The notes beneath the pieces are model-generated. The model worked only from the letters and a program-made list of their open reading frames with translations, did no database searches and was not told the origin of the DNA. From the NCBI GenBank assembly GCA_947649365.1, contig CANSRH010000003.1, positions 12,036 to 76,035 on the forward strand: a DNA stretch of 64,000 bases, written 5' to 3'. Positions 16,170-20,936 of this stretch are shown one piece after another; position 1 is the stretch's first letter, and each line of letters opens with the position of its first letter. A program made the translations under genes and the position numbers. Origin of the DNA: an uncultured Mycoplasmatota bacterium (GTDB lineage: Bacteria > Bacillota_I > Bacilli_A > RF39 > UBA660).

Positions 16170-17153
16170 TTAGAAAAGCGCCAATAGTTTTGGTAAAAAT
16201 AAAAATACTCCTATTAAAAAAGTAGCGATAGCACAAACAAGAACACTTCCTGCTGCTATGTCTTTGGCAAGTTTTGCTTTTTCATTTTTTTCTGGCATTG
16301 CAATGTCAACGATTGTTTCTATTGCTGTATTTGTCATTTCACTACCAATTACTAGTGCAAAGCAAACAATACAAATCATCCATTCTATCCAAGATAATTT
16401 TAAAACAACACCAAATAAAATAACTAGACACATGATACTAATATGTATTTTCATATTTCGTTCCGTTTTAAATGCGGAAGCAATTCCTGTAAAGGCATAT
16501 TTAAAACTATTGATTAATTTTATAACGTTTGTTTTAAAAGAAAATGCTTGGTAAGCTTTGCTAAAAAGAAATAAATAGCCAATTGCACATAAGTATCCTG
16601 CTATTACATCTGATGCATAATGTACTCCTAAATAAATACGACTATACCCAATTAACAAGATAAGAAGCGTTGCACCAATTAATAATTTTCTTTTTGTTTT
16701 TTTTGATGTAAGTTGTTTGTATACTAATAAAGTTAGAAATCCATAAAAGGCTACACTTACCATTGCATGTCCTGATGGAAAACTATAACCACTTACAGAA
16801 ATAAGAGGACAAACATTGGGACGATTTCTTTTTAATATACGTTTTAGAATTTGATTTAAGAAAACTATACCACTTACATTGCAAAGGATTCCTATTTTTT
16901 GTTTTTTGTTCTTTAACAAGACAAGCAAAAAAAACGTGAGAGGAAGAATAACAAAAGAACTGCTTAAATAAGTGATTCCTTTCATACAAAATGTTAAAAT
17001 AGCATTTTTATAAAAGCTTATTCCATTGTATATAATTTTATCAATTGTATTTATTTCATTTGTAAATATTATCCTAGACAGAAATAAAAAAGCAAGAAAA
17101 CAAAGGAGTGTGATTCTTAAAAAAATCTTTTTCTTCTTTTGTTTTGTTTTCAT
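16170..17153 (-). CDS. PAP2 phosphatase / DgkA (undecaprenol or diacylglycerol kinase) fusion protein
   Basis: N-terminal half has PAP2 motifs KRILKRNRP, PSGH, SRIYLGVHYASDV; C-terminal half has prokaryotic DgkA motifs (GSEMTNTAIETIVD, DIAAGSVLV). Confidence 0.7.
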   Translation of the reverse strand: MKTKQKKKKIFLRITLLCFLAFLFLSRIIFTNEINTIDKIIYNGISFYKNAILTFCMKGITYLSSSFVILPLTFFLLVLLKNKKQKIGILCNVSGIVFLNQILKRILKRNRPNVCPLISVSGYSFPSGHAMVSVAFYGFLTLLVYKQLTSKKTKRKLLIGATLLILLIGYSRIYLGVHYASDVIAGYLCAIGYLFLFSKAYQAFSFKTNVIKLINSFKYAFTGIASAFKTERNMKIHISIMCLVILFGVVLKLSWIEWMICIVCFALVIGSEMTNTAIETIVDIAMPEKNEKAKLAKDIAAGSVLVCAIATFLIGVFLFLPKLLALF

Positions 17154-17204: not shown

Positions 17205-17233
17205 AATACAAAAAGAACTATTTTTTAGTTCTC
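17205..17233 (-). terminator. rho-independent terminator downstream of the J-domain gene
   Basis: AGAACTA/TAGTTCT stem, T-run on minus strand. Confidence 0.4.
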
Positions 17234-17292: not shown

Positions 17293-19665
17293 TTACATTT
17301 TTTTATTTTCAAAGTTTTCTGTATTATTATAGTAATTAATATTTTGAGCAAATTGTAAATTAGCTTGTTCTTTCATAATTTCAATATAATCTTTCTTATT
17401 TTTAATAGCTATTTGATACATAGTTTGTTCTAATTCATATTCTTCTACTTTTCTACATTCCTCTGCAGTTAGAGACCAACTTGATATATCTTTCAGTCTT
17501 TTTTGTTCTTCACTTATTGCTCTTTTCTTTTCTTCATAATATGCTATTTCTGCAAATGCTCTTACTACATCTTGTTGGATTTGAGTAGTTGCTCTCGTTC
17601 TATTATTTATTACGTATTCTTGTTTTGCTTTTTCTCCTCGTAATTCTATTCTTTTACTTACTATTTGTAGTAGTACTTGTCTATAATCTTTTTCTTCTAG
17701 TTTTTTTTCTAATTCTTCTTGTTCCTTTTTTAATCCTTCCAATTCTCCGTTAACTTCGTTTCTTCTTCTTTCTTCTTCTGTTTTTGGTTGTTTTCTACTA
17801 TTTATATATTCCTCTTGTGTTTGTTTGTTTAAAAGACTAGCATATTTCTTTTCTGATATTTTTAACATTTTTGTTAAATCATCTTGTTCTAATTCATATT
17901 CTTCTACTTTTCTACATTCCTCTTCAGTTAGAGACCAACTTGATATACCTTCCAGTCTTTCTTGCTCTTCACTTATTGCTCTTTTCTTTTCTTCATAATA
18001 TGCTATTTCTGCAAATGTTCTCACTACATCTTGTTGGATTTGAGTAGTTACTCTTGTTCTATTATTTATTACGTATTCTAGTTTTGCTTTTTCTCCTCGT
18101 AATTCTATTCTTTCACTTTCTATTTGTAGTAGTACTTGTCTATAATCTTTTTCTTCTAGTTTTTTTTCTAATTCTTCTTGTTCCTTTTTTAATCCTTCCA
18201 ATTCTCCGTTAACTTCGTTTCTTCTTCTTTCTTCTTCTGTTTTTGGTTGTTTTCTACTATTTATATATTCCTCTTGTGTTTGTTTGTTTAAAAGACTAGC
18301 ATATTTCTTTTCTGATATTTTTAACATTTTTGTTAAATCATCTTGTTCTAATTCATATTCTTCTACTTTTTTATCTTCTTCTGCAGTACTTACCCAAAAT
18401 GATATATTTTTCAGTCTTTTTTGTTCTTCGCTTATTGCTCTTTTCTTTTCTTCATAATATGCTATTTCTGCACATATTCTCACTATATCTTTCTGGATTT
18501 GAATAGTTGCTCTTGTTCTATTATTTATTATGTATTCTAGTTTTGCTTTTTCTCCTCGTAATTCTATTCTTGCACTATATAATTTTATTTTTTCATTAGA
18601 ATCTTCCGAATTGTTAATTTTTATATTTATATTATCTATTCGTTCATTAATATATTTTAAAAATACATTATTTTTTTTTAATTCTTCAAAATCAAACGGT
18701 GTTGATTGTACTAGATTATTGATAATTAATTTATATTGTTGCAAGTATTGTATAGCATCAAATTCATTGTATTCGCATGCATCTGATTTGTATTTATCTA
18801 TCTTTTCTGTATGATTCTTTGCTTTTATCAGCAATAGTTCTAATTTTTTTTGATAGGTAATTGCATCATTTATTTTATTTTCAAAAACCATTATTAACAT
18901 ATTATTGAATTCTTGCTTTAACAATTCTACTTGTTCTTGTTCGGAAATACAAAATTTTCTTATTTCCTCTATTTTTAATTGCTTTTCTACAAATTGTTTG
19001 GCTTCTACAATGTTTTTTGGAATTTCACTTATTTGACTTTGTATTTTTGCAATTATTTGTTCTAACTCCTCTAATTCTAGTTGCATAGATAACTTTTGTG
19101 CTTCTTTGTGTAAAACTTTAAATTTATTTACATGCACTTTTAATAAATTTATAAGAATCTCATAGTTTTTTTTGTATAATTCTTCATTTAAAATATCACT
19201 ATAAGCTTTTAAAACTAGATTATCAATTGCCTCAGATACTTTCTCATCAATTTGAAAAGAATTTTTCTTTTCCATTGCAAATGCTTCCTTAATAGCTTTT
19301 TTTCTAGTAGCTTCCATTTCTTCATTTGAATAATTATTGAAATTAGGAGAAGTTGTACTTTTTTTCTCTTCTTTTTTTTGGTTATTTATTTCATTATTTG
19401 TATTTGTGGTTGTATTCAATCTTTTTTTATATTCTAAATCGTATTTTTCTCTTTTTACTGGGTTTGATAAAATTTCATATGCTACATTTATTTCTACAAT
19501 TTTTTTTGGATAAACTTCTTCAAATCCCGGATGTACGTCCGGATGAAACTCTTGTACTAATTTCCGATATGTTGACTTAATTTTTTTAATATCGCTATCA
19601 TATGAAATTCCTAATAATTTGTAGTAGTCACACCACTTGATTTCCCATGATTCTTTTACTTTCAT
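17293..19665 (-). CDS. J-domain (DnaJ-like, HPD) protein with long coiled-coil and about 2.5 tandem 153-aa repeats
   Basis: N-terminus DYYKLLGISYDSDIKKIKSTYRKLVQEFHPDVHPG...AYEILSNPVKREKYD is a canonical J domain; remainder Lys/Glu-rich heptad-like; GGGGGA RBS; 29 bp downstream of the vWA gene. Confidence 0.75.
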   Translation of the reverse strand: MKVKESWEIKWCDYYKLLGISYDSDIKKIKSTYRKLVQEFHPDVHPGFEEVYPKKIVEINVAYEILSNPVKREKYDLEYKKRLNTTTNTNNEINNQKKEEKKSTTSPNFNNYSNEEMEATRKKAIKEAFAMEKKNSFQIDEKVSEAIDNLVLKAYSDILNEELYKKNYEILINLLKVHVNKFKVLHKEAQKLSMQLELEELEQIIAKIQSQISEIPKNIVEAKQFVEKQLKIEEIRKFCISEQEQVELLKQEFNNMLIMVFENKINDAITYQKKLELLLIKAKNHTEKIDKYKSDACEYNEFDAIQYLQQYKLIINNLVQSTPFDFEELKKNNVFLKYINERIDNINIKINNSEDSNEKIKLYSARIELRGEKAKLEYIINNRTRATIQIQKDIVRICAEIAYYEEKKRAISEEQKRLKNISFWVSTAEEDKKVEEYELEQDDLTKMLKISEKKYASLLNKQTQEEYINSRKQPKTEEERRRNEVNGELEGLKKEQEELEKKLEEKDYRQVLLQIESERIELRGEKAKLEYVINNRTRVTTQIQQDVVRTFAEIAYYEEKKRAISEEQERLEGISSWSLTEEECRKVEEYELEQDDLTKMLKISEKKYASLLNKQTQEEYINSRKQPKTEEERRRNEVNGELEGLKKEQEELEKKLEEKDYRQVLLQIVSKRIELRGEKAKQEYVINNRTRATTQIQQDVVRAFAEIAYYEEKKRAISEEQKRLKDISSWSLTAEECRKVEEYELEQTMYQIAIKNKKDYIEIMKEQANLQFAQNINYYNNTENFENKKM
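17425..18590. repeat. intragenic tandem repeat, period 459 bp (153 codons), about 2.5 copies
   Basis: landmark taattcatat recurs at 17431, 17890, 18349; copies about 95% identical, with a roughly 230-bp stretch apparently identical between copies A and B. Confidence 0.9.
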
Positions 19666-19694: not shown

Positions 19695-20531
19695 TTATTT
19701 TTTGTTTAATCTTAATGTAGTATCATCATCTGTTAGATTTGGCGTATTTTCTTTTCCAGTCGTTAATAAATAATGAGCATCAATTTTCTTACTCCAATCG
19801 TTTGTAACTTTTCCATTTAATCTTAATTGTTTAATTACTTCATTTGCTGCATCAATTACTAATTGAACTCCATCCATATCTTTGCTAAAATTTCTAGCTC
19901 GATTTTTCGGAATTCCTATTTTTGTTGCTAACTTTATCGCTTCAATTCCTTCAGCAAGTAAGAAAAATTCTCTTCCTTTTGCTAATTGGCTTTCAATAAG
20001 CGTTTTTAATTTTTCTGCAGCACCATATTTACTTTCATTATCTTCACCATCTGTTTCCATCAAGAAAAATACTTTTTCATTTGCATTTGGATATTTGGCG
20101 TCGAAATTGTTAATTTCCTCAATGGCAGTGTCATATAGTCTTGTATATCCAGATGTGTATATTGATATAGGTTTTGCATCTTTTGCTAATATATCGTTGT
20201 GTTCTTTTTTTGCAATACTATTAAATAAAACAGTTGTTATTCGAACATTGTAATTTTTTTGTTCATCTAACAATTTAACAATTGCTTGTTCGGTGGCAAG
20301 TTCTGTACCAGCCATAGACTGACTAATATCTAGTAACAGAATTGCATGCACTACTTGGCGCATTTCTGATGCAACAGTATCAATGTTTTCATAAACCATA
20401 GCATCGATATTTCCTAGTACATCTGTATAATCAATACTATCCGCTAAATCTGCTAAAGATGTATCTTCACTTAATGTAAGACTATTCTTATCTTGTATTT
20501 TCATATTTTCCAATTTCTCACTTAAATTCAT
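19695..20531 (-). CDS. von Willebrand factor A (vWA) domain protein, cytoplasmic
   Basis: MIDAS DxSxS (DISQSMAG) after a beta-strand (HAILLL), later ETDGEDNES (TDG-type motif); no signal peptide; GGGGAG RBS 6 nt before ATG. Confidence 0.7.
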   Translation of the reverse strand: MNLSEKLENMKIQDKNSLTLSEDTSLADLADSIDYTDVLGNIDAMVYENIDTVASEMRQVVHAILLLDISQSMAGTELATEQAIVKLLDEQKNYNVRITTVLFNSIAKKEHNDILAKDAKPISIYTSGYTRLYDTAIEEINNFDAKYPNANEKVFFLMETDGEDNESKYGAAEKLKTLIESQLAKGREFFLLAEGIEAIKLATKIGIPKNRARNFSKDMDGVQLVIDAANEVIKQLRLNGKVTNDWSKKIDAHYLLTTGKENTPNLTDDDTTLRLNKK

Positions 20532-20565
20532 AAAATTCTCCCCTTTGCTTTAAGTAATGTTTTTT

Positions 20566-20595
20566 ATTATAACCCCCCCCCCGACTTTTTGTCAA
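20566..20595 (-). promoter_or_regulatory. sigma-A-type promoter with homopolymeric G10 tract in the -35/-10 spacer (candidate phase-variation switch) for the vWA/J-domain operon
   Basis: minus strand reads TTGACA-aaaagtc-GGGGGGGGGG-t-TATAAT (18-nt spacer), then GGGGAG RBS and ATG at 20531. Confidence 0.6.
20573..20582. repeat. homopolymeric C10/G10 tract
   Basis: only G/C homopolymer longer than 5 nt noted in this AT-rich window. Confidence 0.95.
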
Positions 20596-20726
20596 ATTAC
20601 AAATTATGATGATTGTCAATAGATAATCAAAAAAAGAGACATGTCAAAAAAATTTTAGTGAAAAACTAAAATAAATAACCAATAAAGAAAAACTTTATTG
20701 CTAGAAATAGTATGAATTTTTATTTT

Positions 20727-20771
20727 GTTAGTCAAGGTTAAAAGAACTCACGATGTTCGCCCTTGACTAAC
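20727..20771. repeat. perfect 11-bp inverted repeat GTTAGTCAAGG-N23-CCTTGACTAAC
   Basis: seen directly; followed by T-run on the plus strand; lies between the phase-variable promoter and the upstream gene's terminator. Confidence 0.8.
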
Positions 20772-20890
20772 TTTTTATAAATTAAAAATCTATAAAATTC
20801 TCTAGCTTTTTTACTAAGTATTTTTCTGGTACTCCTCATATTTTTTAAAATAGATTATCGCTCACATACTAAACTTATTTACAAAAGAAA

Positions 20891-20919
20891 AGACTGTTGA
20901 CTTTATTTGTCAACAGTCT
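20891..20919 (-). terminator. rho-independent terminator of the thioredoxin-like gene
   Basis: AGACTGTTGAC-tttattt-GTCAACAGTCT, T-rich on minus strand. Confidence 0.6.
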
Positions 20920-20936
20920 AAAGAAATAGGTGTTCC

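Follow-up and report, generated by a model that had tools for sequence, protein, structure and literature searches.

Long in-frame repeats that recombine and homopolymer tracts that switch promoters are classic devices for surface-antigen variation. The alpha-C and Rib proteins of group B Streptococcus and the streptococcal M proteins are secreted, wall-anchored antigens with demonstrated strain-to-strain variation in copy number. The Mycoplasma Vlps are surface lipoproteins with short repeats (tens of nucleotides, nt) and poly-A tracts. Here, we investigated a locus that resembles both in an uncultured Mycoplasmatota bacterium, on a stretch of 64,000 nt from contig CANSRH010000003.1 (GenBank assembly GCA_947649365.1) that we refer to as the window. 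The element in question is a 459-base-pair (bp) tandem array within a minus-strand gene for a 790-amino-acid (aa) J-domain protein, here called the J protein, which lies downstream of a gene for a protein with a von Willebrand factor A (vWA) fold. Like the alpha-C, Rib, and M protein genes, the J gene has in-frame units of hundreds of bp that are near-identical in DNA and appear homogenised by recombination, with length changing by whole units. Unlike those antigens, the J protein has no export signal and has a J domain, and a length difference by a whole unit was seen between species only (1.5 versus 2.5 copies). With the Vlp genes, the locus shares the two layers of a homopolymer between the -35 and -10 elements and in-frame tandem repeats in the coding sequence. 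It differs from them as a cytoplasmic two-gene operon with 459-bp units and a poly-G tract, the switching of which we infer from sequence. The repeat phenomenon is known, and the setting is new: an orphan, apparently cytoplasmic J-domain/vWA operon with a poly-G promoter. Our best joint explanation, which we consider likely, is that a lineage-restricted J protein of class C underwent a genuine intragenic duplication in its helical C-terminal half and that the copies evolve in concert, together with the functional reading given below.

Chaperone systems offer the other comparisons. DjlA, CbpA, and Mycoplasma TopJ, all of class C (type III), likewise have an N-terminal J domain with an HPD motif and a family-specific region that gives specificity. 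TopJ is also a long non-DnaJ protein, although only its J domain matches the protein studied here. In cbpA-cbpM, a J gene is co-transcribed with a partner, CbpM being the modulator of CbpA. The MoxR AAA+/vWA pairs (RavA-ViaA, NorQ-NorD, and CbbQ-CbbO) place a small cytoplasmic protein with a vWA fold and a metal-ion-dependent adhesion site (MIDAS) beside an ATP-driven chaperone-machine component. This last likeness is an analogy only, as there is no MoxR ATPase here and the chaperone link would be the J domain, and hence Hsp70.

Tandem Repeats Finder placed the array at 17425-18576 with a period of 459 nt, 2.5 copies, 94% matches, 0% indels, and a score of 2071, and an ungapped repeat finder reported three copies at spacings of 459 and 459 nt. 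As the period equals 153 codons, the array is in frame within the minus-strand open reading frame (ORF) of 790 aa. A self-comparison at lag 459 gave the order A1-B1-A2-B2-A3 in the sense of the gene, where unit A has 76 codons (RIELRGEK...EEYELEQ) and unit B has 77 codons (DDLTKMLK...LLQI-S-). An earlier reading made from the letters of the window alone (the sequence-only reading) had named the landmarks, the 459-bp period, and the J-domain gene, and Tandem Repeats Finder, the repeat finder, the ORF list, and Pfam all agree with it. The gene and its parts are the following.

17293..19665, minus strand: 790-aa ORF with a J domain, low-complexity linker, helical region, repeat, and tail
19438..19629, minus strand: J domain with HPD motif, aa 13-76 (PF00226, E 3.7e-18)
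17425..18576, minus strand: in-frame tandem array, 459 bp x 2.5 (Tandem Repeats Finder and lag-459 self-comparison)
18343..18570, minus strand: unit A1, 76 codons, the most divergent copy (79% and 83% protein identity to A2 and A3)
18112..18342, minus strand: unit B1, 77 codons, DDLTKMLK...LLQIESE, rich in E, K, and R, nearly all inside the 251-nt exact run
17884..18111, minus strand: unit A2, with nine codon variants absent from both A1 and A3
17653..17883, minus strand: unit B2, whose exact run with B1 spans 17661-17911
17425..17652, minus strand: unit A3, followed by a unique C-terminal tail

The copies had been estimated at about 95% identity by eye. The overall value of 94% and the presence of a long identical stretch uphold this, but identity is not uniform along the array, which is instead a mosaic of A segments at 87-95% and a 251-nt run that is 100% identical between units (18120-18370 equals 17661-17911). 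At the DNA level, A1 and A2 are ~87% identical over the A part and 93% over the whole unit, with 27 of the first 200 nt differing. Identity is 87% between A1 and A3 and 95% between A2 and A3 (10 of 228 nt differ). If these 251 nt had diverged as fast as the A segments, they would be free of differences with a probability of 1e-16 to 1e-5, and the identical block is far beyond chance. Nei-Gojobori estimates gave a synonymous divergence (dS) of 0.07-0.17 and a ratio of nonsynonymous to synonymous divergence (omega) of 0.57-0.91 among the A copies, and a dS of 0 for B. Given these omega values, the A segments appear to be under relaxed constraint. We considered A2 as a one-step crossover chimera of A3 and A1 and rejected this, as A2 has nine private codon variants and resembles A3 along its whole length. 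Nor, for the same reasons, is A2 a copy error.

The J-protein family is extremely rare. An indexed search of 5.8 billion proteins returned the J protein itself and one orthologue cluster only (P0002/P0003), which at 640 aa and 47% identity is the sole full-length orthologue, and an exhaustive HMMER search of 1.84 billion representatives with aa 116-790 found four proteins (P0002, P0011, P0012, and P0013). The orthologue comes from independent assemblies of two samples by two assemblers (L001 and L002); these and the other related sequences described here are short-read metagenome contigs at ~3-5x coverage. It has the arrangement A-B-A, with two 258-nt A copies that are 97% and 95% identical in DNA in the two samples and are spaced by 462 nt. 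The window protein is longer by one B-A unit (790 versus 640 aa). A units share 79-97% protein identity within a genome, compared with 41-45% between the two species, and have the same boundaries. Since the A units are closer within a genome than between species and are bounded alike, the old A-B-A arrangement appears to have undergone concerted evolution. Together with the 251-nt exact block, these identities bear out the recent duplication or gene conversion that the sequence-only reading had proposed, and recombination or gene conversion in the repeat is supported by the sequences compared.

A third lineage (L007/L008) has a J protein that is 68% identical over 375 aa and a vWA partner that is 83% identical. 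Both of its Logan contigs break off within the first A unit, 11 codons from its start, which weakly fits the graph branch expected at a repeat. The two more distant proteins, P0012 and P0013 (699 and 636 aa), have no J domain and are 24-26% identical to the helical region. A hidden Markov model (HMM) of unit A gave two weak matches ~150 aa apart in each of them, in weak agreement with an old A-B-A arrangement. Their lack of a J domain suggests that the J domain was fused to an older helical family. The genes for these two proteins (L014, L015, and L016) have an FtsX-like permease gene upstream and VCA0040-like, BacA, and Zip genes on the other side, and no vWA or Hsp70 gene was found beside them. 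The remaining protein, P0011 (271 aa), was considered as a short form and rejected: it is a truncation, encoded by the orthologous J gene of a more distant lineage (L010 1820-2728), where homology continues past an in-frame TAA at codon 272. This TAA either marks a nonsense allele or a pseudogene or comes from a sequencing error. Alignment scans with the J protein gave no match in GTDB genomes and only an unrelated J domain in viral contigs, an exact-protein lookup returned no match on record, and the exact DNA pattern of the A/B junction was not found in the JGI metagenomes.

We also recovered contigs of the same species by looking up the exact protein sequences of both flanking genes, which gave four short-read contigs from three other samples. 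Outside the repeat, L004 has 0 differences to the window over ~2 kb, L005 has 0 differences, and L003 differs only at a poor-quality contig end. Within the repeat, the pattern is different. In L004, all 27 of 27 differences lie in the body of the first A copy and make it identical to A2 of the window, with the A1-type 5' junction kept. L003 has an A2/A3-type base at unit position 55 of its first copy, and L006 has an A2-type base in its last copy where A3 of the window differs. Because the variants in L004 are exact copies of a paralogous unit, conversion is indicated over hypermutation. Patches that match a paralogue in otherwise identical strains are the pattern expected from intragenic gene conversion, and either conversion or path choice by the assembler would produce it. 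All of the same-species contigs end in or at the repeat, and none spans the array.

The J domain of the protein is identified by both profile and structure searches, matching PF00226 (DnaJ) at 65.8 bits against a cutoff of 27.8 over aa 13-76 and solved J domains with a Foldseek probability of 1.00. The HPD motif (H41-P42-D43) is invariant in the alignment of P0001, P0002, and P0003 and is also present in P0011. Downstream of it come a conserved helical region (aa ~115-365), the A-B-A-B-A repeat (aa 366-747), and a 43-aa tail. The J domain is the sole Pfam domain, and no G/F region, zinc finger, or DnaJ C-terminal domain was found in the protein. NCBIfam models match the J domain only, at 68.6 bits versus 377.2 for DnaJ_bact (TIGR02349) and 42.6 versus 403 for CbpA. 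The TopJ model (NF037946) scores 54.3 bits versus 300 and covers profile positions 6-67 of 810 only. The protein falls in the heterogeneous class C, outside the DnaJ, CbpA, DjlA, and TopJ families. The helical and repeat region matches no family in PADLOC, NCBIfam, PHROGs, or Pfam, and a Foldseek search of the PDB with the whole model returned no match except the J domain.

AlphaFold predicts an all-alpha protein with helices of 27-57 residues and short breaks, at a mean predicted local distance difference test (pLDDT) score of 70.8 and a predicted template modelling (pTM) score of 0.30. Each 153-aa unit corresponds to about four predicted helices. The repeat is rich in charged residues (20% E, 12% K, and 9% R), and a crude heptad scan shows patchy occupancy of the a and d positions. 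The repeat had previously been described as coiled coil. What survives of this is the all-helical, E/K/R-rich prediction, which makes coiled coil plausible for some parts, but with helices broken every 27-57 residues, a pTM of 0.30, and patchy heptads, a continuous coiled coil is unproven. Unit B could, in our view, be a charged helix that acts as a spacer. No hydrophobic segment was found in either the J protein (maximum KD(19) of 0.51) or its vWA neighbour, and the J protein has no signal peptide, lipobox, anchor, or membrane segment, its N-terminus being the J domain. As export signal, anchor, and membrane segment are all absent, the J protein is no exposed antigen.

The J gene is preceded by the vWA gene, and the features of this transcription unit outside the J gene are the following.

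19695..20531, minus strand: gene for a 278-aa cytoplasmic vWA-fold protein, upstream of the J gene
20566..20595, minus strand: sigma-70-type promoter, TTGACA-18 nt-TATAAT, matching the consensus at 12 of 12 positions
20891..20919, minus strand: terminator-like hairpin of the preceding thioredoxin-like gene
17209..17232, minus strand: weak terminator-like hairpin after the J stop codon, AGAACTA-5-TAGTTCT plus TTTTT, tentative and below the G+C threshold of the scanner

The two genes are separated by 29 nt, with an AAGGGGG ribosome-binding site before the J gene and no terminator between them, and are apparently co-transcribed. The hairpin at 20891-20919 upstream suggests that the vWA/J transcription unit is isolated, with its own promoter. 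The vWA protein has a MIDAS-like DxSxS...T...D motif whose residues (D68, S70, S72, T130, and D161) are invariant in the alignment. Its AlphaFold core has a pLDDT of ~80-90, and Foldseek matches it with a probability of 1.00 to many vWA and integrin I domains as well as to the vWA domain of NorD. No Pfam family was above threshold, the Pfam VWA family scoring 15.5 against 23.8 bits, and the vWA alignment, searched as a profile against solved structures, matched nothing meaningful. The protein matches phrog_7371 (3e-22), and tblastn identified distant relatives at 27-33% identity in large phages (Gordonia, Streptomyces, and jumbo phages), where they are hypothetical or VWA proteins. Homologues are otherwise scarce, with only seven clusters in the 5.8 billion proteins. 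An alignment scan of genomes gave a sole match, a contig of a metagenome-assembled genome (MAG) from wild mouse gut labelled "uncultured Bacilli", and the same scans of JGI metagenomes and viral contigs gave nothing. A literature search on J domains associated with vWA or with anti-phage function turned up nothing relevant.

The vWA/J pair is kept in four lineages with differing flanks (window/L007, L009 and L001, and L010), beside a thioredoxin-like gene, recO, or a putative CYTH-like gene, the last label being read from sequence. That the pair is kept across differing flanks suggests a self-contained cassette. A DUF1848 gene lies between the thioredoxin-like gene and the cassette in L007 (1035-1913) and is absent from the corresponding part of the window (20532-20936). 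Because this insertion is present in the related species only, the left border of the cassette is variable.

The spacer of the promoter contains a run of ten G residues (G10; 20573-20582), which is the only G/C homopolymer of at least 6 nt in the window (28% G+C). In the low-coverage Illumina contigs from other samples (L003, L004, and L005) the tract is G11, giving a 19-nt spacer, and in the equivalent spacer of the related species (L007/L008) it is G7. The promoter tract noted by the sequence-only reading is thus real and length-polymorphic. It is a candidate for a slipped-strand, phase-variable switch of the vWA/J operon. At the 5' end of L004, a SPAdes contig, ~100 nt of poly-C-rich junk (1-103) abuts the G tract and probably arose as an artefact of sequencing or assembly at this homopolymer.

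We propose the following course of events for the array. The ancestral arrangement would have been A-B-A, with 76-codon A segments flanking a B of ~77 codons, and the window lineage would have gained one B-A unit, for which the simplest route is unequal homologous recombination between copies of A. From then on, concerted evolution of the copies would proceed by gene conversion of the RecA type or by unequal crossing-over. Identity-dependent gene conversion may keep B homogenised and, in some strains, A as well, the A segments having presumably drifted under relaxed constraint and been overwritten by one another now and then. A perfect direct repeat of 251 nt would make further gain or loss of units likely. 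As for function, the J domain would bring the housekeeping DnaK to the targets of the helical region or of the vWA partner, and the helical repeat region may be the part that bears the client, the partner, or a spacer. Gain or loss of a 153-aa, four-helix unit might then alter arm length or valency. The J protein would work with the co-transcribed vWA protein, and the pair may be switched by poly-G slippage in the promoter spacer.

Several points weigh against this explanation. An assembly path that crosses node B twice gives B1 = B2 by construction and could over- or understate the copy number. The strain differences in the A copies could also be path choices of the assembler at the coverage of these contigs. 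Because of the nine private codon variants of A2, the duplication must be assumed to be older, with later conversion confined to B. The G-tract lengths come from low-coverage Illumina contigs and are error-prone. Finally, any link between the J protein and DnaK, the vWA protein, or a phenotype is an inference from the sequence.

The strongest alternative is that the array is an assembly artefact. The true genome or genomes would then be A-B-A, and the window would be a chimeric de Bruijn walk through two strains (A1-B-A3 and A2-B-A2) or an arbitrary loop. The orthologue does have 1.5 copies, and the identity of B1 and B2 over 251 nt matches a node that was crossed twice. Moreover, A2 of the window is exactly the A type of the first copy in L004, the A2-type bases in the last copy of L006 make an A2-B-A2 strain conceivable, and every assembly of the same species breaks at the repeat. 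However, the artefact presupposes a pair of strains that are identical in their flanks (0 differences over ~2 kb) and in B but show 27 and ~12 differences in their two A copies. It also leaves the variants of A2 without a donor in an A1-B-A3 genome, whereas a true A1-B-A2-B-A3 genome yields the other strain by intragenic conversion alone. Furthermore, the window contig crosses the repeat with tens of kb on each side, implying support from read pairs or long reads. We therefore regard an artefact as unlikely, and as less likely than a true array, and we treat the 2.5-copy count as provisional. The same caution applies to a copy number taken from any short-read assembly, that of the window included. 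Since the repeat breaks every same-species short-read assembly that we examined, the J gene would be systematically missing or truncated in MAG catalogues.

A second alternative, which is compatible with a genuine duplication evolving in concert, is that the locus is a selected contingency locus. Near-identity would be kept because high-frequency unit gain or loss and poly-G switching are adaptive, much as in Mycoplasma Vlp or streptococcal alpha-C/M proteins, tuning protein size in a conflict, for example with phage or host. We rate this as doubtful. A homopolymer in the promoter spacer that is unique in the window and polymorphic in length is what such a locus would have, and poly-G is found in the promoter of the 83%-related species as well. 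The long identical in-frame units, the occurrence of the cassette in differing genomic contexts, and the phage relatives of the vWA partner point the same way. In contrast, a J protein that lacks signal peptide, lipobox, anchor, and membrane segment is not an exposed antigen, and omega among the copies is below 1. PADLOC gave no defence match for the J protein and a marginal one only for the vWA protein (PDC-M38B, E 0.004, 14.7 bits). Copy-number polymorphism is unproven, as the same-species contigs all end in the repeat.

A more specific version of this idea seems to us improbable, namely that in uncultured gut Bacilli the vWA and J/helical-repeat genes form a mobile contingency cassette of two genes that has not been described before. 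Such a cassette would recruit Hsp70, perhaps in phage or intracellular conflict, with the poly-G tract turning it ON or OFF and A/B recombination re-tuning the length and sequence of the effector. If true, two-layer variation of the Vlp type would act not on a surface antigen but on a chaperone adaptor in the cytoplasm. With both devices on an operon that encodes an Hsp70 cofactor of the J-domain type and a vWA adaptor, the logic of contingency loci would reach into the chaperone network. The module itself would be uncharacterised and very rare, with four helical-region homologues among the 1.84 billion representatives.

Targeted hypermutation of the A segments by a diversity-generating retroelement, instead of recombination, is very improbable: the differences are concentrated in A, absent from B, and mostly non-synonymous, but the substitutions extend beyond the adenines of one template copy and run in mixed directions, synonymous changes are present (omega of 0.6-0.9), the variants of other strains are exact paralogue copies that point to conversion, and the repeat finder detected no template repeat outside the gene in the window.

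Two further observations concern the surroundings of the operon. Upstream of the vWA/J promoter, 20715-20783 holds a 23-nt imperfect inverted repeat with the core TTAGTCAAGG/CCTTGACTAA and 23 nt between the arms, which could be an operator or a remnant terminator; an Rfam scan of the window found no RNA family. Downstream of the J gene, the minus-strand gene at 16170-17153 encodes a single polypeptide in which a PAP2 phosphatase domain and a prokaryotic diacylglycerol kinase domain are fused.

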